Shown here: piece by piece, positions 12,680-64,000 of the stretch
Position numbering within the stretch: position 1 is the stretch's first letter
Layout of the letters: every line of letters starts with the position of its first letter
DNA from: Spizellomyces punctatus DAOM BR117
Taxonomy: Eukaryota
DNA: 64,000 bases
Reading direction: 5' to 3' (one strand)
NCBI GenBank assembly: GCA_000182565.2
Contig: KQ257471.1
Notes under the pieces: generated by a model
What the model saw: the letters and a program-made list of their open reading frames with translations, nothing else
Database searches by the model: none
Told to the model about the DNA's origin: nothing
Position numbers and translations under genes: made by a program

Positions 12680-14576
12680 CTACTGGCTATTTGATTGGGT
12701 TGGCACGTCAGTTGCCACTTTTGCCCAGCCCTCCAATTCCGTCTCATCAACCCATTCACCAGTCAACATGCTCTCTTTCGCAGCAAGCACCACGTCAGCT
12801 CGCCGCTTCTTCCCCTCTCTCTTGATAGCTTTCTTCTGCGTAGTCTTTTCGCGTTTCGTCATTTTCGGTGCTTCCACCTCATTCGGGTCCGGTTCCACAT
12901 AACCAGGTTCGCCTACGTTCGGTTTTGTTCGACCTGTGGTTCTTCGCAAACTTTCCTCATCTACTTGTTCTATCCATCCATTTGCATCTAAAGCTTCGCG
13001 ATCACGGGTACTTTCCCCACCTGGACCATCCCACGATGCTAAAACTACCGGATGGGGAGTTACTCCCGTCGTGGTGGCCACGTCAGGCAACCGATTATTC
13101 AGTGACGTCTCTAATCGTTCTAATTTCGCACTACCACGCTTTGTCGCTGTGGGGCGTTGATACCCACGGTCCAAAAACAACATTGTACGATTCCACTTGA
13201 CAAAATCGATAGCTTGACTGCCTTTGAAAGGGGCGGAATCAAAATGTTTCTTCAAAAGTGCTGTGTCCATCCGTCCCTCGATGCGAAGCTTCCATGCCGA
13301 ATGGGACGTTACTGGCTTCGCGGGAGTATGGCGGTCCTTTTTAGACGAGGTTCTGCGCGTACGGAAAAGTTTTTCCTGCTTAGGTGTCTCAGAAGACTTT
13401 CGTGCGGCAGGGGCTGACCACCAGGAGGCATCCTTTTTGTCGCCTGCTGAGTCTTCAAGGACTTCACCAGCACCCAATACTTCCTGTATGTACTTTAGCG
13501 TCTCGGGTTCGTGCCATTTGACTTCAGCATATACGGCCTGCGCCCCAGTGTCTACCCTAAGCCGACCCCTAGCCTCAAAAAAGCCCGTGAACCAGTGGTC
13601 ACCAAGTCGTGGGGCGGTGTTTGGTCGACAAAATAATTCAGGATGCCCCAGTTCTCTGCACAGGCGCGAAATTTCCGCCTGTCGTTCTGGTATCCAAGAT
13701 CGCCCTTGCAGCAAGCGTGCCATCCTTAGCAGTCCATGAGGTTCGTAGCATCGCCATACCATGTTTCCATCTGGAAGGCTTCGTACGACGCTGTACCGGA
13801 CCATCATCTTAATATAATACAGCGCGCTCACTTCGATGGCGGGCAAAACGATCTCCCATACATGCCGGGGCCAGCCCTCTCCACGTTTAAAGTATATCGT
13901 ACCAGCTGCGTCGTTCAGACCAGCGAGCCAGTCCACGAAACGGGTTGGATCACTTTGGAAAGCATCTGTCAGCCTGGAAAACAAAAGGAGGTGGGGACGT
14001 TCGACTGTAAGGGGATCTAACTGCTCAATCGGATCACTGCCTTCCCATGGCAATCTTTTCCGTCTCCTTGGTCTAGTAGGTGGAGTATGCGAACTCCCGT
14101 CCTTTGGTTCTGGACTTTCTGCTGCAGGTTTGGTAATCTCTTTTTTTGATGGCAGCCGACGCCTAATTTCCCTGGGTTCAAACCTTACGCCATCATCTGG
14201 CAAAGAACCATATCCTTTTTCCCGTTCACCGCGACTTGAAACCGCACCCCACTGCGACTCTCGGGCATTCAAATCATCACCCAAGTGTTTTACTTTCGGC
14301 GATCGGCGTGTCCAGGTGCTGTTCTGTTTCGCCCCATTGTAAGTCACCCCCAGCAGATTTTCAGCACGGAATCCACACCTACGCATGTGTTAGAGTCAGG
14401 TGGACGGGGCAGACAATGCAGAAGAGCAGCTCAGCTACTAACTTGGTCTCGCTGGTCGAATTTCGGGCGCTGGACGTCAAGATGGAAACTGACAAGAGTC
14501 TATAATAGCTACGAAAAAGGCGGTCACAACCCCCCCTCGCAAATTTGCAGACTTGAGGAGGTGCAACTGAGGACAT
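12680..14576 (-). CDS. Nuclear-encoded double-motif LAGLIDADG homing-endonuclease-derived protein with putative mitochondrial presequence
   Basis: Motifs WLAGLNDAAGTI and WFTGFFEARGRL; C-terminal LAGLIDADG signature WKLRIEG..LLKKHFDSAPFKGSQAIDFVKW. An upstream exon (ATG 14576) joins in frame through intron 14379-14442 (GTTAGT..CTAAC..TAG). Confidence 0.75.
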
Positions 14577-25727: not shown

Positions 25728-26775
25728 TCTGCATGAGTGCACGTGAACCATAACATTCAATAGTGTAGAGGTGACAGAAACTGGCACTAGCTACTACACC
25801 AGGGAATAAACCGGCGACAACCGGTTCGGAAAAGGTAACTAACTACTACTAGGCAATTATACACGCAACGGTTGTTCTAACCGGATAACTGCCCACCACT
25901 ACACGTGGTCCCTACTAGGCCTTGATCCAGAACTCTTGATGGCATTGAAGCCAGACTCTTGCATCCAGGAGCGAATCGACTGGGCAGCGTCACAAGCTGG
26001 TGGATTTTCAGTGACAAGGCTTGGAGACTAAAAAAAACTTGCATGTCAGCGAGGTGACCTGATGACAAGAAATGCAAGAAATGCCATCGATACATACCAA
26101 CCAAGCTCAACTAATGTGGCAGTATAATAGTAGGTTTTGTTATCGGATCCGATTGGTTGCCGCTGGTTCTGATCACGGTTGCTGTCGGGCGGTCGAGGTC
26201 CTCGACACCACCACATCGGCGTTCTCATGGTTGACCGAGTCGCGATGAGGTTGTGTGGGTCGCAATGAGCGTTGCGCAGATGCTTCGAGTCGAGGATGGG
26301 TAAAGAGGAAAGAGGGAAAAGGCCCCCCTTTTATAGACCTTTGGCATGCGCCTCACCGCAGTTTAAAAAAAAACATTACAATACATGCCACACCAATCTG
26401 AGCGATAGAGGGGGGTTCTGATTATGCGATATGATTAACCGGATTAATCCGGATAATAATGCGTCCTAGTGCCATTTTCAATCGCCTCCACACTATGAGA
26501 GAAGATGTCACGTGCAATCACTGCTGGGTCGATATCACACTGTCCAGCTTGATCATCCACCAGCGGCTTTCTTCCAGTTTTCTACCTGTTATAGACGAAT
26601 TTTCCATGCTTTAACAAATATCGATAAGGGTCACAATATTTCTATGTATCGGTACTGTTTCTCTCCATGTACTCTGCAACCTCTGGCAATACTTGCTATT
26701 CTGGTTTGAATGAAAAGATCAGCTTGTCCAATCGAGACTAATGGACGCTTTTTTTGTTTTAAAGAAAGCGTACGG

Positions 26776-27192
26776 TACACTGAACAGGTCCGAACATGAA
26801 AATGCTGCCAACTCCGACATTTACATAACCAAACATTCCTCATAACCGACCATTACTTCTTGATATCTGCAGGTGCTTGTATTGTAGTCTGATAACACAT
26901 GTTTTATTAAAAACACCGTACACTGAACAGTTCTGAACAAAAATGTTGCGAACTCCGACAGTTACATAACCAAACCATTCCTCATAACCGACCATTACAT
27001 TTTGCAGTCTCTTCTTTTCGTGCTGCCGTTTTCCCTGCCTTTTCATCTGGCTTCCTATTTGTTCCAGATACTTTAAAGTGGCAGGCGTGAGCGATATCCT
27101 ATTAGGTCCAAGTCCTTGATAACGTATGATTTGATGATACTCTACTCGGCACCAACGATTCCTCATAACCGACCATTACATTTTGCAGTCTC
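26776..27192. repeat. Degenerate local tandem duplications
   Basis: ATTCCTCATAACCGACCATTAC occurs three times (~26835, ~26977, ~27158). An ~80-bp unit beginning GTACACTGAACAG occurs at ~26776 and ~26918. Confidence 0.85.
26990..27166 (-). pseudogene. Fragment paralogous to the C-terminus of orphan ORF 27640-28428
   Basis: QIIRYQGLGPNRISLTPATLKYLEQ versus ALIRYQKLGPERMTLTPILSKYMAK, with clear nucleotide similarity (27059-27130 versus 28279-28350). Confidence 0.7.
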
Positions 27193-27221
27193 CTGTTTCC
27201 GTGTATGCCATATTGACTATG

Positions 27222-27271
27222 GGGGTACTCTGTAGTATATCACGCCAGTACGCTATACTACAGAGTACCCC
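27222..27271. mobile_element. ~50-bp MITE-like mini-element: perfect 18-bp TIRs with flanking direct repeat (TSD)
   Basis: GGGGTACTCTGTAGTATA-14 nt-TATACTACAGAGTACCCC, flanked by GACTATG on both sides. Confidence 0.65.
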
Positions 27272-27282
27272 GACTATGGTAG

Positions 27283-27305
27283 TCAATGAGTCATCAAGGA
27301 CGTCA
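27283..27305. repeat. 23-bp direct repeat copy 2
   Basis: TCAATGAGTCATCAAGGACGTCA. Confidence 0.8.
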
Positions 27306-27639
27306 CAGTGGATCGAACCAGGTACATGACACGCTGTGATAATCCGCTGAGCACTTGGGCCAACTATTGCAGCTCATCATCGATTTTGCACGTTTGACAG
27401 ATATTGGCATCGTCTTTATTCCAATAGTAGTGTTATATCCATTCAAACATGCTGCTGTACGCAGCTGGGGTTGGCCTTTCGTGTCGTCCCTTCTGAACTT
27501 TTCTATGGTTGTGAGTGGTTCTCTTAATGGGTTCGAGCGGAGACCGGTTTGATGGGGGGCAGTAAGGAATGGGGCAGAGTCCGACGTATCTGAATTGGGA
27601 GCTTATTTCGTCTAGTTTTGTCAAAGAGCACCAAACAAG

Positions 27640-28428
27640 ATGGCTTCTCGGCATCCCATTAGCAACGTCTCCGTCGGCGGTGACGCCGGGGAGCTGCAGT
27701 CACCAAAGGCTCACTCCTCAGGTGAGGAAAGCACAGGCAAGAGCAGCAGCACCAGGCAGGGCAATAGCAGTGCTCCTGCCGCCCCTATGGGACAATCCTC
27801 CTCTTTTTCAACTGTTACCTCTCCGGCACAGACGACTACATCCGCTGATAGCACTTCTCACTTCCGTAAGAGACCTCGTATAGAGGGCAACCTTGGCTGT
27901 GTTTTCGCGGATTGCGAGCCGGACATGTGGGAATATCGTTTTCAGCGTCCTCGTCCGCCGAAGTCGGAACTGATACGGACCTGGGACGGCCACCCCGAAT
28001 TCCGGAAGCAATTTGAAGACTTGGTCGACCTTGGTATTCAGAGATATCTTCGCCTGGAAGCTCTTGAACCCAACCATCTGGCAAGATTTGCTCTCTGGGC
28101 ATGGGGATTGAATGTGGCATATGCAATGGAAGGACAGGATATGCCTGAGGGGGAATTTTTTGAGGCGCAAACAGCTGCAATTGATTTGGGCAAGAGTTTT
28201 CGAGACGAGACGCGGCTCTGCCAGCGTATTATTTTCAAATATGATTTTGATTTCGACTTCGTTTCAGGCGAGCAGGCACTCATTCGTTATCAAAAACTTG
28301 GACCTGAACGGATGACGCTCACGCCTATACTTTCAAAGTACATGGCAAAGAAGGCAAAGCAAGATGAGAAGGCACGGAAAAAGGTGAAACGAAATGATGA
28401 CAAGGGAGAATGTAAGGGCCAGTTATGA
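27640..28428 (+). CDS. Intronless orphan protein (262 aa): Ser-rich N-terminus, RKRPR NLS-like motif, basic tail
   Basis: Long ORF with plausible composition; a diverged paralogous fragment nearby supports coding status. Confidence 0.6.
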   Translation: MASRHPISNVSVGGDAGELQSPKAHSSGEESTGKSSSTRQGNSSAPAAPMGQSSSFSTVTSPAQTTTSADSTSHFRKRPRIEGNLGCVFADCEPDMWEYRFQRPRPPKSELIRTWDGHPEFRKQFEDLVDLGIQRYLRLEALEPNHLARFALWAWGLNVAYAMEGQDMPEGEFFEAQTAAIDLGKSFRDETRLCQRIIFKYDFDFDFVSGEQALIRYQKLGPERMTLTPILSKYMAKKAKQDEKARKKVKRNDDKGECKGQL

Positions 28429-49010: not shown

Positions 49011-52000
49011 ATGAGGTTAAAGCATCAGATACGTGTCGAGACGAGTGCGGACATATGGCAAGCACTTCGGGATAAATGCGAAGGTGACCTTGTAAATGTC
49101 ATGGTGGGATGCCTGGTTACGCTTCTCTGGAAGTACACCAAGGTTCCCGTGCACATTTTGGAGGTGTGGAGGAAGGATGGCAGGTGTGTATTACTCTAAA
49201 TGACCGCCGCGCGCGTAAGGTCGATCGCTGATGAAATGTGGCTTAGATCGAGTCGGGTGAAGTTCCGTATCTCCCCAGACACAACCCTTGGCGAGATCCT
49301 TGAAATCAGCGCTACCTCTCTGCCTGCCACAGACTTTGAAAGTCTCGACTATGTCCACGCCAATGATAAACACAGCGAGAGTCCTGAATTTCTTGAGACC
49401 GCCTTGGCAGGCGGACTGAAAATACGATTCAATGTATCTGGTTCGCTCTCTACGTCAATTAGTTTCAACCAACTCCTCGGCCACCGCGAACCGCATACGA
49501 TTCATATCGCAGACCATTGGAATGCATTGTTGCGGTTTATTGCGAAAAACGACGGGTGGCGGGATACGCCAGTTAAACAGATTTCCATTGTACACGGCAA
49601 GGAGCTGGATCAAGTGATGTCCAAGTGGACTACCAATGTTCATGGAACAACCTTGAAGTCGTATGCAGATGGACCTAAGCTGCTACACTCACATTTTGAC
49701 GCCTCCGCGAAACGAAACCCGAGAGGCGTTGCCTTGAGATATATTGATCACGACAGAAGAGAAGAACTGACGTACCGAGACGCCGCGCATATTATCGCAC
49801 GAGGCGTACGGGCAATTTTGCGCCGTTTCCGCCAGTCGCAACCATTAAGCCAAGAGCATCTTGGCTCTGCGTCAATGGAGCGATACGTAGCTATTTTCTT
49901 TCCGCGTGTTGGTATGGAAGCCTACCTTGCCATGCTTTCTATCCTGAAATCTGGCGCCGCTTATGTTCCTATCGATCCTGCCTACCCACCGGACCGAGTG
50001 GCTTACATCGTTGAGGATGCCTGTGCATCATTACTGATCACCACTCGGGCCATGGAGCAAATGGTCGAAGAGTCAGGATTGCTTGGCACTGGCAAGTGCA
50101 CTGTCGTTTTCTGGGATGAATTGCTCCAGGAGGTTCCAGTGGAAGGTACCACTGAAGAGGTGGCGATATCTCCATCAGCTCCGTGCTATTCTATATATAC
50201 ATCTGGGTCTACTGGGAAGCCAAAAGGTGCAGCGTTCTCCTATTCGAGAATCCCATGCATTTCCTTACTAACAGACCTCGTAGGTGTAATTGTTGAGCAT
50301 TGCAACGCTTCCTTCCTCGTACACTCAGAGTCCGTTCTTTTTCCTCTGAATGCCCAAGATGTAGTCCTCCAGCCGTTTTCCATTGCTTTTGATGCCTCAA
50401 TCGAATGCATCTGGCTGGCCTTCCACAATGCCGCGACCCTGCATATCCCGTCGGAAGTCGATATGAAATCTGGACCCATGCTCGCTGACTACATTACAGA
50501 GCACAATATTTCGGTTCTTTCGACTGTGCCGACTTTATTGTCCATGATAGACGAGGACATGCCTACCTTAAAATTATTGATCTTGGGTGGTGAAGCATGT
50601 CCACCGGCGCTGGTAGAGATGTGGGCTTCAAGGACTAGACTGGTAAACACTTATGGACCTACGGAAGCAACCGTCATCTGTACATCATGTGATATGCAGC
50701 CTGGGGTGCCAGTAACGATAGGAAAGCCGATACCGAATTACGAGATCTATATTTTGGACGATGAGCTGCTACCTGTACCTATTGGAATTGCTGGAGAGAT
50801 CCATGTCGGTGGAGACGGGTGGGTACCGTTTTATATTTACAGCTGTGCAATACTGTGCAATACTAAATACCGATCAATCCTGGCATCGTCCATCAGGGTT
50901 ACTCGCGGGTACCGAAATCGTGATGACCTAAATACTGAAAAGTTTATTCCCAGCCCGTATGGTCCTGGAAAACTTTATAAAACTGGTGATCTGGGCCGTT
51001 GGACGCCAGAGGGCGATATTGCTTACTTGGGCCGTGCCGATGCCCAGGTGAAACTGAGAGGTGAGCATATCTTGCATCTGAAATTGGTCATTGCATTCTG
51101 AGTAACGACCTTCAATTGTAATAGGCCATAGAATTGAGCTCGGAGAAATTGAATCAGCCCTTGTCCGCTTTGGTCACCCAACCGTCCTTGCGTCCTGCGC
51201 TACCGTCCAGCAGATTGAAGGTGTTGATCACCTTATCGCCTATATTATCCTAGCTGATCTCGATGACGAGGATAACGCGAGCCGATGTGACTCGAACTCA
51301 GAGTCTGACACAGTGTATGCTGAGGATGTTGACATCCAGGGTATTCTCGGGCGAATGAGGGCTACCTTACCTGGATACATGGTGCCAACCTATGTGGAGG
51401 TAATGAACGGTGATTTTCCAACGCTTCCCAGCGGCAAGGTTGACCGGAAGAAACTTCCGGTGCCACCACGTAAGTGCTTGCAGTTTATTGATATGACGGT
51501 GTATCCTGCGAACTGAGTTCGTCTACTGGCAACCTTATAATGTAGCGCATGTAATAAAAGCCCGTTCTTCCATGTCATCGATTCGCTCCCAGAGGAAGAC
51601 ACTAACTAATCAAGGATCGTTTGACTCCATGAATACTCTCTCTGCGGAGTCCCTGTTGGTAGATATGTTTACCGAGGAAGGAACCACCCCGACCGAGCGT
51701 ATGTTGCGCGATGTGTGGTCTAATATCCTGATGATAGAGATCACCACCCCCGAGGTGGACTTTTTTGCGCTGGGTGGCCACAGCGTCCTTGCTGCCCGAC
51801 TAGTTTCCGAGTTGCGCAAGTCGCCGACAGTGAAAGGTGTTACTGTGCGTGATGTTTATACTGAACGCACGATTAGGGGTCTTGCTGCAAGAATCGATAC
51901 ATTAAATGGCAAAACTGAAATTGCGGTAAAAATGAAGAACTCCAATGGCCGCCAGTCGTCTCAGGATGGGTCTGAAGATGCCAGTGGTACAGATGGGACG

Positions 52001-54632
52001 GTGGTGGACATGCTTGGTTCACCCAGTGACAAAAAGGAGCTGCCCCATGTGTTCCTACCCCACATCGTTTCGTTGATCCTATTCTACGTAATGGTGAGTC
52101 CAAGTCTTGTAGTTTTTCTTCGAGCCCAGCGGTAACAACTTTGTGCTTCAACAGGGGCATATTACCAGCTTCATGTCGTTGATCGGGTATTACCTTTTTC
52201 TCGAGTTCATGAATCCGACGTATTTCTCGTCCCGCTATTATGTGTTCCTAGTGGGAATCGCTCTATTTCCTGTCATTCAATTTTTGATGTTCGCTGCTGC
52301 CATTGGGTTAAAATGGCTCGTTATTGGAAAGTTCCGACCGGGAAAGTACAGATTGTACTCGTTTTACTATTGGAGGTGTGCTACTAGTTATTTCGTGGCT
52401 TGCAGAAAACTGTGATATTAACGGATCACTTACCCTCACTTTTTCGGCTCAGATGGTGGATCGTTAGTCGTGTTACCGCAATGGTTCCGGCTGCTTTCAT
52501 GCGTGGTTCACCCCTGCTTCGTATCTATTTGCGTTTGCTTGGTGCTAAAATCGGGCGCAACGTTCACCTGCAGTCAGTTTTCGTATCTTCGTTCGATCTG
52601 ATCACCATCGGCGATAACACTTCAATCGGGTCTGATGCTCACCTATACGGATTTCATGTCATGAACGGTTATCTGCACATTGGACGGGTGACAATTGGTG
52701 AAGGATGCTACGTTGGTGCCCGCTCACATTTGGAACCAAACACGTCGATGGGCGATCGGGCGCAGCTTGGCGAATTATCATGTGTTGGAATGGGACGGCA
52801 TATTCCATCGGGCGAGAGTTGGACTGGGTCTCCTGCTGAGCCTGTGGACCCAGCTTCCATCCTTTGTGCAGATATGGTCATCCCCCTCCGAAAAAGACGC
52901 AGCTGCTTTGGTCGCATGTTTGAGGCCATCGGTGACTTCCTGCACGCCCTCTTTTTCGTTTTCGCATACTTCATCATGGCTATCATGATGTTTGGGGCAT
53001 CTGTACCGAATTTAATTCTTTTGCTATTCACCGGAAATGTGATAAGCTCATGGACTATGCGGATGGCAATCTATATACCAGTCATGGGGTGAGTGACAGT
53101 AACTACGTTTCCCGCTGTCCAGCTGTAGTAACGATGTTGAATATCCTCTTTAGTCCAATCTATTGCGTTTGCATTGCCTTTCAGCTGGTGATTCTTAAGT
53201 GGCTTATCGGTGGCCGTATTCAACCTGGAGTCTATAGCACACGATCCTTCGCTTACTTCCGTATATGGTTCGTTGACAAAATGGTCCAGACCTCGCTCAG
53301 CGCACTGGGTGGAATGTACGCGACTCTGTATCTTCCACCGTGGCTCTCAGCAATGGGTATGAAAGTGGGGAAGACTGTAGAAGTGTCTACTGCGGCGAAC
53401 TGGACTCCGGATCTCTGTACGTTGGGTGACAGGTCGTTCCTCGCCGACAACGTCTGCCTCGGCGCGCCTGTGTTTCATGGTGGAATGGTGAAAGTTAGCC
53501 ACACGGAGATTAGGGAGAGGTCTTTTGTTGGAAACAGCGGGCTCATGCCATCCGGTAGCACCATTGGCAAGAACTGCTTGATCGGCGTCAATTCAGTGCC
53601 TCCTGCCAGTCTCGCAGAATGCCAAAGCTCTCAAACGGTCTCCGAAAAGAACAAAGAACATGGTTTCGTTGTGAATGTGGAAGAAGTTATACCACCTGGT
53701 TCCCGTTACGATGTTCCCGACGGTACATCTTGGCTTGGCTCACCAGCAATGAACCTCCCCGCTCGCGCTTGTGCAGTGAAAAAATTCAAAGAATCGAAGA
53801 CCTTCCAGCCGTCTCGCAAGCGTTATTTGCAACGGTATTTGATCGAGTTCTTCAGGGTGACTGGTCCTGCCATGATTGAAGGAGGAACTTTGGTTGGCGC
53901 GTTCATACTGGCCATGTGGCTGGACCTGAGGTGGTGGCATCTTTGGCTCTACTGGCCGCTCTTGCATATCGGTCGTGGAATTTGCTTTTGTGCCTGTGTA
54001 TGGCTCGCCAAGTGGATATTGATCGGCCGCTATATTGCTCAGGAACAGCCCTTGTGGTCCGTTTATGTTTGGAAGGCCGAGGTAAGAAAGTCGCAAGGTG
54101 CCTGGCTTATGCTGTTTACCGTTATCTAATCTCTTGTTTACTTATCCAGCTTGTCAGCGGTTGGGAAGAATTCGGCTGCAATCCAGCTTTCGTCTCTGGT
54201 CTTCAGGGAACTCCGTGGATAAATCATTGGTTTCGCTCTCTAGGTGCCAAAATTGGTCGGCGCTGCTACATTAACACGGTAAGTGCACACCAGCAGTTAC
54301 TCGGTCAGCTGCGCTTTTCTCATTATCATCGATTACTTTTGCTCCTCCAGGTGTGGTTCTGCGAACCTGATTTGATTAGTATCGGCGATAACGTGTGCCT
54401 AAACACGGATGTTGTCCTGCAAACGCATCTGTTTGAGGACCGAATTATGAAGATGTCACATTTGCGTATCGAGGACCATGTGTCAATTGGCGGCGCTTCA
54501 GTGATTCTCTACGACTCAGTCATTGAAGAAGGGTGTCATGTTGATTCGCTTTCGTTGGCCATGAAAGGCGAAGTACTCAGTTCTTGGACGCATTGGCGAG
54601 GGACGCCAGCCCAACCTGTTTTCCAGGGATGA
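49011..54632 (+). CDS. Pls-type (epsilon-poly-L-lysine synthetase-like) NRPS: degenerate C-like domain, A, T, then three TM/left-handed beta-helix modules; ~10 introns
   Basis: A-domain motifs LKSGAAYVPID, YTSGSTGKPK|G, FDAS, NTYGPTE, GEIHVGG, YKTGDL, QVKLRG|HRIELGEIE, LPSGKVDR; T domain DFFALGGHS; three KW...LG(A/M)K(I/V)G repeats ending LQTHLFEDRIMK. Confidence 0.9.
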
Positions 54633-54942
54633 TGCGGATTTCTGCATAATGCGACGCTGTATTTGCTTTGTATTACTCTAATAGACACGCTTCACAAGAT
54701 CAATTACACTAAGTGGCTTATGTGAGAACTAAGTATTTAGAGTTCGAGATGCGAGTTGCAAAGCACGAGAATAACAACTTGAGATGCATCTATTCATACA
54801 TCGAACATTTAATTCACAAAATACTCAGAAATCGTAGATGCCATAGTGTACCGGATTCAAAAGTAGTCCTTCGCGGTTTTCGGCATGACTGCAGAGAGGA
54901 GGGAAGTTACCTAACAAGTATCCGGGTTCATTCTTGCACAGG

Positions 54943-55157
54943 TGCAAGGTAGACCTGTTCTTTGGTCTTCGCACGCAGTTGCGGACTTTGATTTTTGCGA
55001 CGCGTCTCGCGTGCCATATGACCATATATAGTTATAGTGATCATGTATCCATGTATAGCTAAAGTATGGCGCAGCGCGTAGCAGTTAGCTTAGGAAAACC
55101 CCGCCGCGCCGACAACCTGTCAAAGTCTGTCGGTTCCACGGCGGCCCCGTAGTTAGA
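54943..55157 (+). mobile_element. Partial LTR copy, inverted relative to the LTR at 55913-56450
   Basis: TGCAAGGTAGACCTG...CCCCGTAGTTAGA aligns with the reverse complement of 56239-56450 over ~215 bp. Confidence 0.8.
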
Positions 55158-55912
55158 TGTTTATTCTTTGCCTCATTGCATGGCACTGTCACAAGACGGA
55201 TTTCCCTCCCATTTGTTTGTTGGGGTACGGTTGTCTGTATCACTTGAGAATTATGGTACGGGGTCTTTTTTGTGCGGTTAACACCAATACTGTGTCACTA
55301 TGCACATATATGTTCAAGTGGGACTTCTATTGGCCAATTCTCACTTACAACAGCTGCTCTGTGATCTCTATGGCTAGAATTGATGTTTGATGGTTGAAAA
55401 TGGGTCTTTGTGATCAAAGGACTTTTTTTTATGGTTGAAAGCATACTTTCTATGGTTGCATTGTTCTAAAATGCACTTTTGATGGTCTGAAAATGAGTTG
55501 GTACAATCAGTTTGTGTTAAAAACATCATTTCAATGGTTTGTGAGTGTAAATATCTTGTTTTCTAATTATCGCTCAGTGTTTCAGTATCTCCAGCATGGA
55601 ATGGTTCTTCGTGACTGACTAGAGAAATTAAAACACAAGCAACACCAGTAAAGGTATGTAGAAAAACTAAAATATATATATATTTGCTACAAGAAAAGGG
55701 GAATCCAGTGCAAACATGCCTCTTATATACTGCTAAAACTATGTACTCTAGAAGAAAAATTGTAAAGTAGGGAGATGAACCATAGGTTTGAAATATAATG
55801 GATTAAGATTGCTCTATTAATTTCCCATCACTGGAATGCTTTATATACCATGCATTTACATAAGCTTTAAATACAATATCCATGTGTCGCACATATGGCA
55901 CTAGCACTTTCT

Positions 55913-56450
55913 TGTAACGTCAATCGACCAGATTGCTCTAGTTGATGTGTTTCTTGTGAATCATTGAGCCCTGTGAGAGGGCTGTATAAAGACTTTGTTG
56001 TTAATACAAGATAAAGGGAACTATTGATAGTTCCTCACATTGCTAACTAGGCTAGTTGTTCTTCTAGTTTTTCCTTGCTTGCTGCCTCCCCTTCTGAGGG
56101 GCTTTGGGGCAGCACTTTTTTATGCTTGCTCCCTCCTTCGGCGGGGCGTCGGCATGAGATTTCCTGCCCCCGCCGGTGCGGTCCCTCTTGCGCCAATCGG
56201 AAGTGATTGGCACTAGCAATTAAAGGGACAAATAATCTTCTAACTACGGGGCCGCTGCGGAACCGAACAACTTTGACAGGTCGTCGGCGTGGCGGGGCTT
56301 ACATAATCTAACTACTGTTATGCACTGCGCCATACTTTGGCCATACATGGCTACATGATCACTATAGCTATATATGGTGTATGAGAGACGCGTCATGAAA
56401 ATCTAAGTTCGCACTTGCGTGCAAATACCAAAGGACAGGTCTACCTTACA
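55913..56450 (-). repeat. Putative 3' LTR (~540 bp) of the Gypsy element
   Basis: On the minus strand it starts TGTAAG, ends GTTACA, is preceded by a GGGGGG polypurine tract (56451-56456) and contains a TATA-like CATAAAAAAG. Confidence 0.7.
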
Positions 56451-56730
56451 CCCCCCGCAGATTATACCTGCAGCAGTAGCGAAGGCTTTAATCTCTTCTT
56501 GACCTTTCTTTTGGTCTGGAAACAAGAGTTCTATCTACTTCTATGTAGTGAGGTCCTTGGGTTTTCCTCATCCCCTGGGTGTCTCCTCGGTTTGCCCAGA
56601 CCGGTTGAGCTCTGTGGCTCGGCCAGTGGGGCTGTCCCCGGGACTACTGGGCTTTCCCAGCATGACCCATGTGATTGCATCCAATGCAACACTTTACATA
56701 CGTATGATTTTCATCATGATGAGGTAATTG

Positions 56731-56922
56731 TTTGGGGGCTGACCCCTGGAGCAGCTTCACCCGGTGCCCACGGGGACCGTTTGCTGAGTCGTCGCTCCAT
56801 TTCTGGCCCTTTTTATACTTTATACAATTTGGGGGCTGACCCCTGGAGCAGCTTCACCCAGTGCCCACGGGGACCATTTGCTGAGTCATCACTCATTCTG
56901 GTCATGTATATACTTTATACAA
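56731..56922. repeat. ~97-bp tandem duplication in the Gypsy 3' non-coding region
   Basis: TTTGGGGGCTGACCCCTGGAGCAGCTTCACCC...TATACTTTATACAA occurs twice (56731 and 56828). Confidence 0.85.
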
Positions 56923-57561
56923 AAGTGCGCTTATCGCTATCTTAGTGCTAGACAAGCCTTTTTACTTTTGTTGCGTCATCTATGTACTAAAGCCCTACTG
57001 AATATACACGCGTACTTGGAAGCTTCTTTTACGTACAAAGAACCAGTTGCTTTGTCCTTTTAAATGGGAGCGTATTTCGCTTTCCCCTCTATCATTCTTA
57101 CTACCCACTGTCGATAATGTCTTTTCCCCATATGGACATCACAATACGCCTTGGTCCACACTTGAGACCGACTGCACATGTAAGCCCTGCATGATTTACG
57201 CAGGCACCTCGCTTATCACATCGTGGGAATGGTTATGGAGGTGGTGACCCAGTGGGTCATTGCGTCCATGGTCCCATGCATAGCATTTTGTGTGCTCGGG
57301 TAGGTCATTGTTCATTGTCGGTTTCTTTTGTCTTTCATGTTGTTAATCGGAGTGGACTGGATTTAGATTTTCGACCAGTCAGGGGCTTGAGAGTATTTTC
57401 AAGCCCAGTCATTCTCAACAAACCCCCGAAGAACATATCGCTTTTGTTCCGTTTTGGGCTGTTGGGACCTTGCACTTGGGGTTTGTGGTCGATGTGGGTC
57501 TGTTGGGTATGCTTGTATACTTGTAATAGACATCATCCTCGTAAATATATGTTTCATGTCC

Positions 57562-60500
57562 TTAATGCTCCATTCTCCAAATTTTGTAAGCGTCTGTCTG
57601 TCGAATGTGGTGGAGAGGTTCCCAAGTGTTCTCACTATGCGGGTATCCTTTCCATTTGATGAGGAATTGTGGTTTACCAAGTCATCAGCGTTGGTCAATA
57701 ATCTCCTCGACTTCATATTCGGGAATCCCTGCGATATGAACAGGAGGTGGCAGTACTACTATGTTCCTATAGTGGTGAGACGCTGGGTCTTCGTATTTCT
57801 TTAGGACACTAACATGGAAGATAGGATATAAGGCAGATAAGTGAGTATCCTGTAACTTGAGCTCATAGGTGTCCGGATAAGGTCCCATTGCTTTGATTGT
57901 GTAGGGGCCGATCCAGCTAGTGGCTAGCTTTGCTGGTTTCTGCAGACTAATGTCTACCTCAATCCCTTTGCAATTGAGTAGGACCTGGTCTCCTATGGCG
58001 AAGGTAATAGCTGTGTGTCCTTTGTCATAGTGTTCAGCATATTTATCCTGTAGTTCCTTCATGCGGTGTTGAACGATTACGGCTATTTTGTCCATCGCTT
58101 TTTTGATGTCCTTAATCTCATTTCGGTCGATAGGTTTCATCATTTGAAGTTCTGTGGAAGTAATGACTCCATCCGCTTGTGAGGGCATTCGCCCGATATC
58201 TGCCTCAAATGGTGTCAGTCCATGTTGGTTCGGGGTGTTGTTCAATGTGAACTTGAGGAGAGGAAGATACTGTGGCCAATTATCTGCCACATGGTTGAGG
58301 TACGGCCGATATATGGACTTTACTGTCCGTATCATCCGTTCGCATTTGCCGTCAGTTTGTTGGTGTCGGGCACTAGCAAATTGGTGTTTCGTACCAAGGA
58401 CTCTACAGAAGGCCTCAAAGAAATCGGAAAGGGCTTTCGGGTTGTGGTCAGTAATAAAGATCCTGGATGCTCCTACATTCTTGTAGACTTGGGACAAATA
58501 TGTCTGCGCAAGATCGTGAGCATTGGAAGCTTGGAGTGTTGGTACGAGGATGGTCCGGTTAGTCAAGTAATTGACGAAACAAAGAATGGCATCGGGTCAG
58601 AATCCATGGGTGCTATTGCCTGGAGGCATATAAGTCATATCAAACCCGATCATATGCCATCGACTATTAGGGATTGGTAATGGTCATAAAAACCCATGCT
58701 TCCGTAAAGGGTTCTTGTATTGTTGGCATTCAGGACAAGTCCGAATATATGCGTAGATGTCACGTTCGAGGTGAGGCCAGTAGAATCTTCGTAGAATTTT
58801 AGCTAATGTGCGTCATTGACCTTCATGCGAGCCATCTATTAGGCTGTCATGATATTGCTGTAAGATTCTAGTATGCTGCATTTCTGGTATGTATAGCCGG
58901 TCCTTCTCATAAGTTAGGAGGTCATTTTGTATTGCGTAGTGTCGTAGCCTTGATCCTAAGGCATGGGCTGGTGTTGTCTTCAACGTTTCGATTATTGTAA
59001 GGGCATAATTGTCTTGGCTCAGTGCCTGAGTCCATTCTTCGCGATTAAATGGCATTAGTGTCGTCTTGGTGTTGGCGACTAATATGGCTTGCAACTGGAT
59101 TCGTTGTTGACACTCTGCACATCGGGGTGCATAGTGTGGGTTCTGCGAAAGAATGTCCGCAACATGGTTAACTTGTCCGGGCATGTATTCGATCGTCATG
59201 TCGAATTGTTGTAATGTTTCAACCCATCCTGCTTGTCGTCAGGAAAGGTGCGGCTGCATTTGAAGGTAGATCAGACTTTTATGGTCAGTGAAGGCATGGA
59301 AGAAGATACCAATCAGATATGGGCGATTATGTTTCAAAAACTTGACTAGGGCTAAAAGTTCCTGTTCGTGAACTGGATACCACGTCTCGGTGGGTTTCAT
59401 CTTACAGGAGTAAAATGAGACTGGTCATAGACGGGGTAGCGCTTTAAGTTCCCAGATGGTTTTCGGCAGCGGAGATGGTATCTCATCTTCCAGGTCTGTG
59501 GTTTGGGCTAGCCATCCGCTGATCGCGAATCCTGATGAATCAGTGAAGATGAAAGTGTCTTTGGTCAGGTCGAAGGTCACCAGGATGGGTGCAGTGGTAA
59601 TAGCATTTTTGATCTTTTCGAATGCTGTTTTTTCTTCTTCTTTCCATTGCCATGTTTTCTTTCCAGATTGTAGTTGCAAGAGGGGCATCACGATTTCTGC
59701 ATATCAGTTGACAAAGTCAATGAAGTAATTAGTTAATCCTAAGAATCGTTGGACATCATGATGATTTCACAACTCTGGCCAGTCTTGGACAGCTAGAATC
59801 TTGCTGGGAGCGATCCATATTCCGTTTCATCCAATAATATGTCCGCAGAACTCGACCTCAGGTTGTCCCCACATGCACTTGGCTGGGTTCACATAGAGTT
59901 TGTGTTCAGTCAAGACTCGAAGCACAATATCTACATGCTTCTGATGTTCCTCCATTGTCCTGGAGAATACCAGGATGTCGTCGAGGTAGGCGAGGACTAG
60001 GTCGTCATAATGCGGGCCGAGGATCTTGTTGATGAGGTGCTGAAATGCAGCTGGAGTGTTAGTTAATCCGAAAGGCATTACCAGATACTCAAAGTGTCCG
60101 AATTGTGTACGAATGGTGGTCTTTTCCACATCGCGTGGGTTTATTCTAATGCAATGGTAAGCATCTTTGATGTCGATACTCATGAAGAACTTTGCACCAG
60201 CTACACAATCTCGCATCTCTTGTAGATTTGGTAGCAGGGTCCGGTCCTTTTTGGTTACGGCGTTTAGTCCTCGATAGTCTAGACATACTCGTAATCCCCC
60301 ATCCTTCTTCTTGGCGAACACTATCTGGGCTCCCCAGGGGCTAGTGGAGTGTCATATTCATCCTTTTGCTAGGAGGTCATCGAGCTGTCAACGAAGCTCT
60401 TCTAACTCATTGGTACTCATATGCTGTAAGGGGTATGCGAGTGGTTTAGCTCCAGGAAGGAGTTCAATGCTAAAATTGTCTTCCCCTCTGTCTGGGGGGA

Positions 60501-61386
60501 ACTTGCCATTCTCGGTAAAAAGCATGTTGTTGTATTTATCGAGTGTAACCTTAAGGAAGCCTGTGCATCCATTATTGGCTGTGTCGAACTCTCCTTTTCT
60601 TTTCTTGCCTTTTGTGTAGAGCCTTGCTACATGGAAACTCATGTAGCGATCATCGGCTTCCTCTGGTTGGATCCTCCATGCTGTCAGGTATCTGTTACAT
60701 TTGATATCTTTGTCGAATTGCTTGGAGGAGCATTCATCCCATGTCGTCTTGGGTTGAATAAACTGTGAGGGAGGTTTGCCGAATCCTCTCAGATGGGCGG
60801 CATGATATGAGGCGGTGGCTTCCCATGCTCTGCTGGTCCATTGCGCTTCGATGTTATGGCTCACATTGTTAAAGTTAAACCAAAGAGTTGGTCGTTGTGC
60901 TGTCCAATCAATGGAGACCTGCTTAAGGAGTTTTAATAGAGGTAACCCTATCACTGCATCAATGCCAATATTTGCTACAACAAAAGGGATCTTTCCGAGG
61001 TTTATGAATCCTTGAGGTTGCGAATTGGACAAGACTAGTGAAGAGGTTATCATCAAGTTTGATAGGCTCTGAGATCCTTCTTCGCCCCATTTTATCCGAA
61101 TGGGTTGCTCTGGAGCATACTGTTCGAAATGATGTCAGTTTGCAAACTTCTTGTTGATGAGGTAGCTTGTACATCCAGTGTCAAATAATATTCTAGCAAA
61201 CTTGTCGCTGACACGTCCATGGATAATGAAGGGCTCCTCAATCTCAGGATTTTTGATCTTGGTGTCGTCGCAACATAACGGTTCTTCCTTCTGGTCCTGA
61301 TCTGGTAGTCGTGGTACAATGACCTCGTGCATGTGTACTATGGCTGCTGAAGGGATCAGGGCAGTCAGCGGCTTTGCTAAAAATCC
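57562..61386 (-). pseudogene. Gypsy pol (protease, RT, RNase H, integrase, chromodomain) with many in-frame TGA stops
   Basis: LFDTG; KKKDGGLRVCLDYRGLN; YLVMPFGLTN; YLDDILVFS; FTDSSG; QTDGKCERMIR; WIGPY; EYEVEEII..FLIKWKGYPHSENTWEP. Confidence 0.93.
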
Positions 61387-61860
61387 TCCGTTTGTTCATC
61401 CTCAAAGATTTCTTCAATCAAGGATGGTTCCCCTTGTTTTGCCCAGGTGGGCTCGTCGGCCTCCATGGTTTGGTACTCAATTGGAGGGTGTTCAGTTGTC
61501 ATTGATTGAACCTGGGATTGCGACATTCTGACTCCACGTCCCCTTCCTGGTCCTGTACCTCTGGTAGAGGGTTGTCCGGGTCCACGAGGAGTTCCTCGAC
61601 CTTGTGGCAACTGCGTGGGGTATGGGGCAGCTTGTACTGGAGCGGATGGACATTGACAAGCATAATGCCCTCTTCCTCCGCAGTTATTGCAAACAATGCC
61701 AGAGCTTGTTCTCATTACTGGCTGAGTGGCACCTTGGGTTACCGTGGATGTCATGTGACCGCGAAAGGATCCTCATCCACGAGTGGACGGGTGACTTGGC
61801 GTTGTTGAGGATGGTGCGGGCACACCGATTCGATCGATGAGTCCCCGATCATTATATGCC
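61377..61860 (-). pseudogene. Gypsy gag C-terminal fragment with CCHC zinc knuckle
   Basis: CNNCGGRGHYACQC; RG-rich linker. Confidence 0.8.
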
Positions 61861-62283
61861 ATGTGAAGGCTCTGCTGCAGGGGGACCAATACATCTTCTT
61901 CATCATTCATTAGTGACAGCATTACTACAAAGTGAGGCACTTGGGGACAATTTCATCAAAAATATTCCCAGGGAAAAAGTGCCACAGGATAAAACCAATG
62001 GTAAAAATTGGAAGCTTATGGAAAGTAAAAAATTATGTAGAGACATGTAGGGATGAGAAATGTCCCCATTTTCCTAGCAAGATTGCAAAAAGAATAGAAA
62101 TATCCACATGTTTAAATGGCAACATTGGTTTCCTTGTTTACACAAAAATCCACAGAAGATGTAGGCAACTCAGGCGTCAGAACTCATCCCATCTCAACAT
62201 TACCTTTGAGGCATACCAGCCGGGATTGGCCACTCCGCGCCCGGCATGCCTGCCGGCATCCTCATGTCCGTTCTTCAAATGGA

Positions 62284-63384
62284 CTACATCTGCGCCGGCA
62301 TCTTCTGCCGCAGAATTTCTATGTGCAAAAATGTACCCTTCGGACGAACTTTTAACTTTTTCTGTTGCAATCTTGTTTTAGTAGGTCGTGTTTGTACAGG
62401 CTCCAACTGATGAATTTCTTTGTGAACTTCTTTTTGTGTTCTGGTCAATTTTACTGGTAGATGACCTGGTTTCTCGGTAATCGGTGCATTGGTTTTCTGT
62501 AATTCATAGTATTTGAAACGCTGGTCTATTTCTTTACCATTGGCGTATGCTACTACGAATCGATAGCCATCGACATTGACTATATGGTATACTTCATCAG
62601 ACCATTTTGCCTCGTATCCTTTTTTGAAAATATCCTGTTTGAGTAATATTCTTACATGGTCGCCAATGTCAAACTTCTTGAAATCACTTACAGCCTTGCT
62701 ATTATCGCGTAGATAATCACCATTAGCAACATCGACAGGTGCCTTTTTCAATAGACTGTGATATGAAGTATTGTAGTTCATAACAAGGTCAGGAAGAGCA
62801 TCTATGTAGCGCTTAGTTTTAAATACGGTCATGTATCTGGAGATAACACTTTTCAGTGTGCGATTAAACCTTTCGACCAGACCCATATGGTTATGGTCTG
62901 CAACTTCAGCCATGTAATGGTTTATACCATACTTATTGAGCAATTGCTCAAAAACAATGTTGTTGTACTCTGAACCCCTATCAGTCGTGATATTTTTAGG
63001 ACGCCGCCTAGCGAGTAACTTTGTAAAACAATCAGCAATCTTTTCTCTGGTTTTATTCTTGAGAGGAAAAACAAAGGCATAACGAGAGTACACGTCTACA
63101 ATACATAACAGATAACGGTAACCATTGTTGTAGGTAGCATATTTCTGCATGTTGCACAAATCCGATTGCCATATGTGATCAACACCATTGGCTGTTATAT
63201 GCATGTAGTTAGGCTTGACAAGAGGTTTGTGTACTTGTTGCACATGCTGACTGTCGATGAATGTCTTTATATCCTTTCTGGAAATACCCTGATCCTTGAG
63301 TCTCTGGTAGAGCTTTTCTATGCTCTGAAGTCCAGTCTTGGGATCATAGTAAACTTTCTTGATTAGTTCGGTTTTTGTCCCCAT
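62284..63384 (-). CDS. Polinton/Maverick rve-type (DDE) integrase
   Basis: YYDPK..EKLY, WQSDL, GYRYLLCIVDVYSRYA, TDRGSEY, VERFNRTLK, RYIDALPDLVMNYNTSYH, FDIGDHVRI..FKKGY..KWS, YYELQK. Confidence 0.92.
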   Translation of the reverse strand: MGTKTELIKKVYYDPKTGLQSIEKLYQRLKDQGISRKDIKTFIDSQHVQQVHKPLVKPNYMHITANGVDHIWQSDLCNMQKYATYNNGYRYLLCIVDVYSRYAFVFPLKNKTREKIADCFTKLLARRRPKNITTDRGSEYNNIVFEQLLNKYGINHYMAEVADHNHMGLVERFNRTLKSVISRYMTVFKTKRYIDALPDLVMNYNTSYHSLLKKAPVDVANGDYLRDNSKAVSDFKKFDIGDHVRILLKQDIFKKGYEAKWSDEVYHIVNVDGYRFVVAYANGKEIDQRFKYYELQKTNAPITEKPGHLPVKLTRTQKEVHKEIHQLEPVQTRPTKTRLQQKKLKVRPKGTFLHIEILRQKMPAQM

Positions 63385-63385
63385 T

Positions 63386-64000
63386 TTAAAAACCGAAAGG
63401 AAGTGTCTCTATGACCTTAGACTCAGAGTTAAATTCTTGAACCACACGTTTGTTGTAGACAAACTTGTACTTTTTGCAGGGTGAGTTATTTTTTTCTGGT
63501 ATGATGATCTTTGTCTTGTTACGCACACTGTGTGTTTTACTAATGTTGATTTCGCTAAAGTTAAAATTAACACAACTCTCTTTCTCAATACCTTCATCAT
63601 CAATGTACCTAGGGTTAAATACTATATCCTTCATAGACTCATGTCCAAGATTGAGTCCATTTTCATATGAAAGTGCGAAGCCTTTACAGACCGTCTTTGC
63701 TCTCCCTGTTTTGTTGAGAATGTAAGAGTAATTCTTAGCGCCACCTGAAACAAATTCTACAATATGGTCGCCTTTCAATTCATCTGTCAGGTCTCCAAGA
63801 TAATTACCATAGGGCAAAGTCTTTTCAGTTGATCCTATATCATCATCAACATATATAATAGAATCAGTATCATAGTACAACACCTTTTCCCCTACAGTAT
63901 CCAGAACACTGTAAAGTTTACAACGAGCCAAAGCGGTAGTGTATGCAGCAATGAAAATACTAGTATTCTTGTCATCACGAACAGCAGCCTTATGCAAGGA
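63386..64000 (-). CDS. Polinton-type protein-primed family B DNA polymerase, C-terminal part (truncated by window edge)
   Basis: IAAYTTALARCKLY, LYYDTDSIIY, GNYLGDLTDEL, EFVSGGAKNYSY, CKGF, KRVV..TLPFGF*. Confidence 0.93.
   Translation of the reverse strand, partial: SLHKAAVRDDKNTSIFIAAYTTALARCKLYSVLDTVGEKVLYYDTDSIIYVDDDIGSTEKTLPYGNYLGDLTDELKGDHIVEFVSGGAKNYSYILNKTGRAKTVCKGFALSYENGLNLGHESMKDIVFNPRYIDDEGIEKESCVNFNFSEINISKTHSVRNKTKIIIPEKNNSPCKKYKFVYNKRVVQEFNSESKVIETLPFGF

Follow-up and report, generated by a model that had tools for sequence, protein, structure and literature searches.

The window analysed here, a 64,000-nucleotide stretch of contig KQ257471.1 from Spizellomyces punctatus DAOM BR117, ended in two open reading frames arranged in tandem on the minus strand. 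The first, recognized from its ORF, motifs and homologues, encodes the C-terminal 204 codons and the stop codon of a protein-primed family B DNA polymerase (pPolB) of the Beta-adintovirus/Maverick type (63386 to 64000); read from 64000 to 63386, its frame is stop-free and still open at the window end. The second (62284 to 63384), assigned by ORF, Pfam and alignment, encodes an rve (DDE) integrase of 366 amino acids. The polymerase stop codon TAA occupies 63388 to 63386 and the integrase ATG lies at 63384, so that a single base (63385) separates the two genes and the minus strand reads TAA-A-ATG, exactly as an earlier note on this DNA had described. In 2000 base shuffles of 62284 to 64000, a 366-codon stop-free frame never occurred, the longest reaching 191. 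The same note had called the genes AT-rich. None of 120 other 2077-nt windows was as low in GC as the element, but with 38.9% GC against 47.9% in the remaining window this richness is moderate. A plus-strand frame of 154 amino acids (61917 to 62381) was rejected as a gene, having neither a Pfam match nor a good start.

Both the YYDTDS and the KNY motif were present in the 204-residue polymerase piece, which by itself gave no polymerase family match in a Pfam search. The piece was 98% identical (4 of 204 residues differing) to SPPG_05489, a 484-amino-acid S. punctatus protein that matched DNA_pol_B_2 (PF03175) with 79.1 bits (cut-off 25.8); a PDB sequence search with SPPG_05489 returned no match. 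Identity of the piece to Powellomyces hirtus TPX53505.1 was 66%, and to a PolB of 1362 amino acids 68%. When SPPG_05489 was used as the query, these longer proteins (67 and 65%, respectively) were followed by a drop to 45% or less, a level at which the named rows were mostly animal loci; the top PolB matches outside the chytrids were animal Mavericks, at 40–45%. A search with the Powellomyces PolB additionally found that of a Rhodactis coral adintovirus (41%), a Beta-type element according to the available part of the supplement of Starrett et al. (2021; PMC8502044). With its 484 residues, SPPG_05489 is about a third as long as the full-length relative of 1362 residues, which suggests, judging by sequence, a gene break or a poor gene call. 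One contig of run X1 showed 0 differences from the window over 63361 to 63727, a stretch that includes three of the four sites at which SPPG_05489 varies. The window copy is therefore real, and SPPG_05489 represents a sister copy.

A PolB tree was constructed by a quick method from 44 rows picked from the search results for the polymerase piece and SPPG_05489; it was rooted at its midpoint, and its sampling comprised no plasmid and no Glomeromycota polymerases. The window polymerase, SPPG_05489, the Powellomyces protein and the 1362-residue PolB formed one clade (SH-aLRT 100, stem 0.75), which, under the midpoint root, fell outside the group with the named animal rows (support 85). In encoding a protein-primed family B polymerase, here represented by its C-terminal 204 residues, the element agrees with the Polinton/Maverick type; the N-terminal terminal-protein, OTU and exonuclease regions of the gene would lie beyond the window end.

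The integrase matched Pfam rve (PF00665) with 64.7 bits (cut-off 32.6). Its SDL, TDRG and VERF motifs, at residues 74, 134 and 170, respectively, correspond to D75, D135 and E171, with 35 residues separating D135 from E171; D75 and D135 were invariant across a 13-row integrase alignment. The triad, which the earlier note had read as intact from these same motifs, was confirmed, and the protein is a DDE integrase of the kind expected in a Polinton/Maverick. A chromodomain was detected in its tail neither by Pfam nor when 14 chromodomain tails were compared with it, the best E being 0.021. The best of 168 matches was the integrase of Powellomyces chytrid fungus MELD virus 1 (DAC81637.1), with 59% identity over 99%. 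In a quickly computed tree of 40 integrases, the window protein, MELD virus 1 and two further proteins formed a group (support 95) that was separate both from the integrases with a chromodomain and from that of the Gypsy. Viral-contig scans with the integrase, SPPG_05489 and a four-member integrase alignment yielded no relative, and a metagenome scan gave two short, distant loci among 92 candidates.

In P. hirtus, PolB and integrase are annotated as the single gene TPX53505.1, the tail of which was 80% identical, gaps included, to the MELD virus 1 integrase. The order PolB-then-integrase is thus conserved in Powellomyces. The fusion itself, with its gaps relative to DAC81637.1, looks like a gene-calling artefact that merged two neighbouring viral ORFs. 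Identification of the window element as a Polinton/Maverick, which had been proposed on the basis of pPolB plus rve integrase, was borne out by the presence of this tandem and by MELD virus 1 as the closest named source of the integrase.

On its left-hand side, the element adjoins a chromodomain Gypsy retrotransposon (57565 to 61923, minus strand; assigned by Pfam and reads) with gag end, protease, RT, RNase H, integrase and chromodomain; the element interrupts the gag of this retrotransposon. Four sequencing runs were mapped onto 52001 to 64000; runs X16 and X18 are ChIP libraries of other samples. One X1 contig and four X18 reads had different letters before 61924, while five X18 Gypsy reads ran on past 61923 with different letters and represented uninterrupted Gypsy copies; 14 read letters beyond 61923, checked by hand, extended the gag frame without a stop. 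In contig and read mapping, both sides broke at the same base (61923/61924), which moves the start of the element from 61900, where it had previously been placed, to 61924. Among the records listed, no contig or read explicitly bridged this junction. The other flanks before 61924, combined with uninterrupted Gypsy sequence beyond 61923, indicated that the element was inserted into the gag of an already existing Gypsy and is younger than this retrotransposon. The element has a sharp terminus, further insertion sites and multiple copies, as expected of a Polinton/Maverick. At several positions in the Gypsy (57633 to 61863), nearly all X16 and X18 reads differed from the window (25 of 25 at 59748); these samples may therefore lack this locus or carry it only rarely, or other copies may be enriched in them.

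Read break points and comparison with vertebrate motifs identified the terminus as 5'-ACTACA (61924 to 61929, plus strand), an imperfect trinucleotide repeat and candidate jumping-back motif in protein priming. Vertebrate Mavericks end in (AGT)2, (AG)3 or (AC)3A, which, in the available text of PMC8097293, are thought to permit jumping-back priming. ACTACA matched none of these three motifs, which places the element outside the Mavericks in the narrow, vertebrate sense; its imperfect repeat may follow the same logic as the vertebrate ends. The Gypsy bases beside the junction, AGCATT (61918 to 61923, plus strand), are predicted, from this one end, to form a 6-bp target-site duplication; duplications of 5–6 bp are characteristic of Polintons/Mavericks.

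The first 420 bp or so of the element (61924 to 62342) constitute a terminal segment that is probably a terminal inverted repeat and that overlaps the last ~19 integrase codons. This assignment was based on read depth and on a contig end at 62313, which suggest an inner limit near 62342. Mean depth in six single-copy NRPS bins was 2.8 (X16) and 3.5 (X18), as compared with 10.7 and 8.9, respectively, in 62401 to 64000 (3.8 and 2.5 times the NRPS bins); in the bin 62001 to 62400, it reached 20.1 and 19.4, about double that of 62401 to 64000. These values suggest about three element copies with the terminal segment present twice in each, copy numbers that are rough since other samples supplied the reads and their ChIP libraries may enrich repeats. 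Within the 64-kb window, the terminal segment had no long inverted partner.

A GC-rich hairpin island (62200 to 62320), recognized from GC content, folding and loose contig ends, may represent a cis element within the terminal segment. GC content reaches 61% at 62201 to 62300, and the island folded with a z of -3.36, with 0 of 200 shuffles as good; it was one of three stretches folded and was picked for its GC content. X1 contigs with loose ends at 62159 and 62219 contained the island but diverged leftward for at least 255 bases. The island is thus common to diverged elements and may inflate the terminal depth, and diverged sister families may keep it (62159 to 62320) as a conserved cis element. 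Folding of the terminal 100 and 150 nt was matched by 13 and 16 of 200 shuffles, respectively, and a perfect terminal palindrome was absent.

The proposal that the element is younger than the neighbouring Gypsy agreed both with its nesting in gag and with the contig pieces. Among the 8 of 34 pieces listed, 0 of 367, 2 of 265 and 16 of 727 bases differed from the window in the element, as opposed to 34 of 457, 23 of 352 and 47 of 696 in the Gypsy. The frames themselves carried less information. The Gypsy had 14 TGA stops in 1277 pol-frame codons and the element none in 570 codons (Fisher p 0.008), but this contrast is weak because CGA, the usual source of the Gypsy TGA stops, occurs only twice in the element. 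Of the seven differences within the element (among 40 of 598 differences listed), six were TG/CA in the window and CG in other copies; four differences altered integrase residues (250, 321, 353 and 360), none of them in an invariant column. The earlier description of open ORFs was correct as to the absence of stops and overstated as to intactness, given the two CGA codons and the element's own CpG mutations. Overall CpG observed/expected ratios were alike (element 0.64, Gypsy 0.68) and gave no separation. In Spizellomyces, 5mC is confined to transposons, according to the accessible portion of PMC12695648, and the observed differences fit a window copy that is undergoing methylation-driven CpG decay.

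Transcription was assessed with RNA run X15, in which about 6 in 100 reads were sampled and which derives from another sample and is 3'-biased, as judged by its pattern. Element bins showed a depth of 0 to 0.14, with 0.68 in the terminal bin on the strand opposite the integrase, as compared with a depth of 36, with poly(A) ends, at the 3' end of the NRPS. In this library, the element was near silent. No RNA dataset was listed as carrying 61900 to 64000. The NRPS-like gene itself (49200 to 54703, plus strand) was transcribed, with X15 poly(A) ends at 54699 and 54703.

MELD virus 1 is represented by a 21,205-bp record that was deposited as a virus (integrase DAC81637.1; Starrett et al., 2021; PMC8502044, as far as available). 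Polintons/Mavericks measure 15–25 kb; of the present element, 2077 bases fall in the window. Section 3.4 of that study describes six Powellomyces MELD viruses, which combine fibre-like genes with either a Beta-type PolB or other replicases. A PolB named for MELD virus 1 was not among the best 120 matches in either the SPPG_05489 or the Powellomyces PolB search. The window element resembles MELD virus 1 in the sequence of its integrase (59% over 99%), which is of the same length class and without chromodomain, and in its chytrid host; it resembles the Powellomyces locus of TPX53505.1 in having a PolB, 66% identical, directly upstream of a MELD-virus-1-like integrase. It differs from MELD virus 1 in its host genus and in being integrated and multi-copy, with a mapped end.

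Bellas and Sommaruga (2021; PMC7805220, available in part) reported an integrated S. punctatus PLV, the 'S. punctatus group', which, like the window element, is integrated in this host species and encodes a pPolB; its terminal inverted repeat has a probable counterpart in the window element. The published PLV lies on NW_015971538, with a 154-bp repeat, whereas the repeat of the window element looks longer. Among 30 of 114 supplement rows, its pPolB is SPPG_00918 and its MCP SPPG_00925, whereas the window polymerase matches SPPG_05489. In view of the different contig, repeat length and SPPG identifiers, the window element very likely belongs to another family, set apart by description.

With animal Mavericks and Beta adintoviruses, the element shares a pPolB at 40–45% identity, an rve integrase and intronless ORFs, and its probable terminal repeat would, like theirs, measure a few hundred bases (PMC8097293 and PMC8502044, in the sections available); it differs from them in its own PolB clade, its chromodomain-less integrase and its ACTACA end. 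Adintoviridae, as Starrett et al. (2021) proposed them, have an animal host, adintovirus virion proteins and a chromodomain on the integrase; the window element has a chytrid host and no chromodomain, and no virion gene is visible in its part within the window. According to the available text of the same study (PMC8502044), virion proteins of the adintovirus type were found only in animals and in protists close to them. A 2026 preprint (10.64898/2026.06.19.733378, seen in part) places PLV ATPases in numerous chytrid genomes, and together with the chytrid elements of Starrett et al. (2021) and Bellas and Sommaruga (2021), in their accessible parts, it indicates that the phrase 'sparsely described in fungi', used in the earlier note, understated the record. 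In the literature searched, with subscription papers outside its coverage, no account of this family in Spizellomyces and no mention of SPPG_05489 was found.

Whether the family is a virus or a transposon turns on genes beyond the window end. A PolB alignment scan of viral contigs (IMG/VR) returned 12 PolB-bearing loci, three of which (L003, L005 and L010) encoded a related integrase. In L003 and L005, both PLV-like, a chromodomain-less rve integrase lies directly behind PolB, at distances of 6 and 51 bases, respectively, and thus in the same tandem as in the window. Both contigs are distant from the window lineage (PolB 43 and 36%, integrase 39 and 33% identical, for L003 and L005, respectively) and, unlike the window element, fall outside the chytrid PolB clade. 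Both encode an A32 ATPase above the Pfam cut-off, and L005 has a weak protease match just under it. A 552-residue protein of L003 and a 577-residue protein of L005 were related (29% identical); Atlas assigned the former, with a score of 0.98, to the double jelly-roll capsids, its TM to a cluster named DJR being 0.65, and structure prediction of this capsid candidate without an alignment gave a pLDDT of 29.4. By analogy with relatives, the remaining 13–20 kb of the element would probably carry genes for a capsid, a packaging ATPase and a protease; it would then be an endogenous virus and not a transposon lacking a capsid.

A capsid-less or internally deleted Polinton, in which the module is real but the morphogenesis genes were lost from the copy or from the whole family, so that only a transposon or a truncated relic remains, is an unlikely alternative. 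It would account for the 2077 visible element bases without a structural gene, for the length of SPPG_05489 (484 versus 1362 residues, by a break or poor gene call), and for CpG decay and near-zero RNA; moreover, some fungal Polintons have no detectable MCP, according to the available part of PMC7805220. It fits less well with a closest named relative whose 21-kb record was deposited as a virus, with the ATPase and capsid-like genes of two viral contigs that share the tandem, and with an element end that is sharp and common to other insertions.

The earlier note had named a polymerase of linear mitochondrial plasmids as the reading that would overturn a Polinton. A nuclear insert of such a mitochondrial or cytoplasmic plasmid polymerase, located by chance beside a transposon integrase, would be compatible with PF03175, which also covers organellar plasmid polymerases, and with the former binning of Beta-type PolBs with fungal mitochondrial plasmids (PMC8502044, in its available text). 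No plasmid or mitochondrial label occurred on named rows among the best 120 matches in each of the two PolB searches; those rows came from Powellomyces, from animal loci, from an adintovirus and from a small number of metagenome bins. Linear mitochondrial plasmids, for their part, encode a phage-type RNA polymerase and have no integrase. The PolB-integrase tandem, moreover, recurred in Powellomyces and in viral contigs. Chytrid and Maverick PolBs as best matches and the adjacent integrase argue for a Polinton, a conclusion reached with a tree that held no plasmid sequences, and a plasmid origin is extremely improbable. It is likewise very unlikely that assembly fused fungal DNA with a Maverick of animal or environmental origin, or that the element was recently transferred from animals. 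This reading draws on the animal Mavericks as top PolB matches outside the chytrids (40–45%) and on the lack, among the records listed, of one that spans the junction. Against it, same-species runs cover both the element and the host NRPS, one contig equals 63361 to 63727 with 0 differences, the break falls on one and the same base from either side, a 66% orthologue exists in a second chytrid genus, and a long stem carries the chytrid clade, which lies outside the animal groups sampled.

The end of the window is thus very probably one end of a low-copy (about three) self-synthesizing element of the Polinton type, from a lineage in chytrids of which Powellomyces MELD virus 1 is representative. 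Its polymerase and integrase would act as one replication-integration module. Following the priming and integration model drawn from Polinton, adenovirus and virophage biology (PMC11071308, PMC8097293 and PMC8547959, each in its available part), pPolB would replicate a linear copy, with a terminal protein serving as primer at the ACTACA end, and the DDE integrase would join the element ends to host DNA, generating a short duplication, predicted to be AGCATT. The copy is probably silenced; under this model the host would achieve this by cytosine methylation, which would now be eroding the copy.

These results trace the MELD virus 1 lineage into a further genus within its host order, reveal a second, apparently unannotated Polinton family in a model chytrid, and supply the exact end, end motif and insertion order of the element. 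They leave the overall picture unchanged, Polinton-like elements having already been reported from chytrid genomes. It is speculative and quite improbable that the approximately three copies include at least one complete endogenous virus that can be induced and that, kept silent by host methylation, brings together an animal-Maverick-type polymerase, an integrase without chromodomain, ACTACA as a new end motif and a capsid of the protist type. If such a copy exists, S. punctatus, which is culturable and transformable, would be a workable system in which a fungal Polinton with pPolB and integrase could be shown to replicate by protein priming, to integrate and to form particles; only an inducible complete copy in this tractable host would raise the value of the finding.

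Other features were observed elsewhere in the window. A 1.5-kb region (54941 to 56452) without a long ORF is bounded by long, imperfect inverted arms (54941 to 55165 and 56231 to 56452; 75–89% complementary) and is probably the relic of a non-autonomous DNA transposon; depth was raised at 56001 to 56400 (about 17 versus 3). On the minus strand, an intronless-looking frame of 568 amino acids (12683 to 14389) had no Pfam match at E 0.01, and two of its stretches resemble LAGLIDADG nuclease motifs. At 27064 to 28345, inverted arms of 66 nt (76%), 1150 nt apart, surround a 269-amino-acid frame without a Pfam match, and short direct repeats (26772 to 27203) adjoin these arms.
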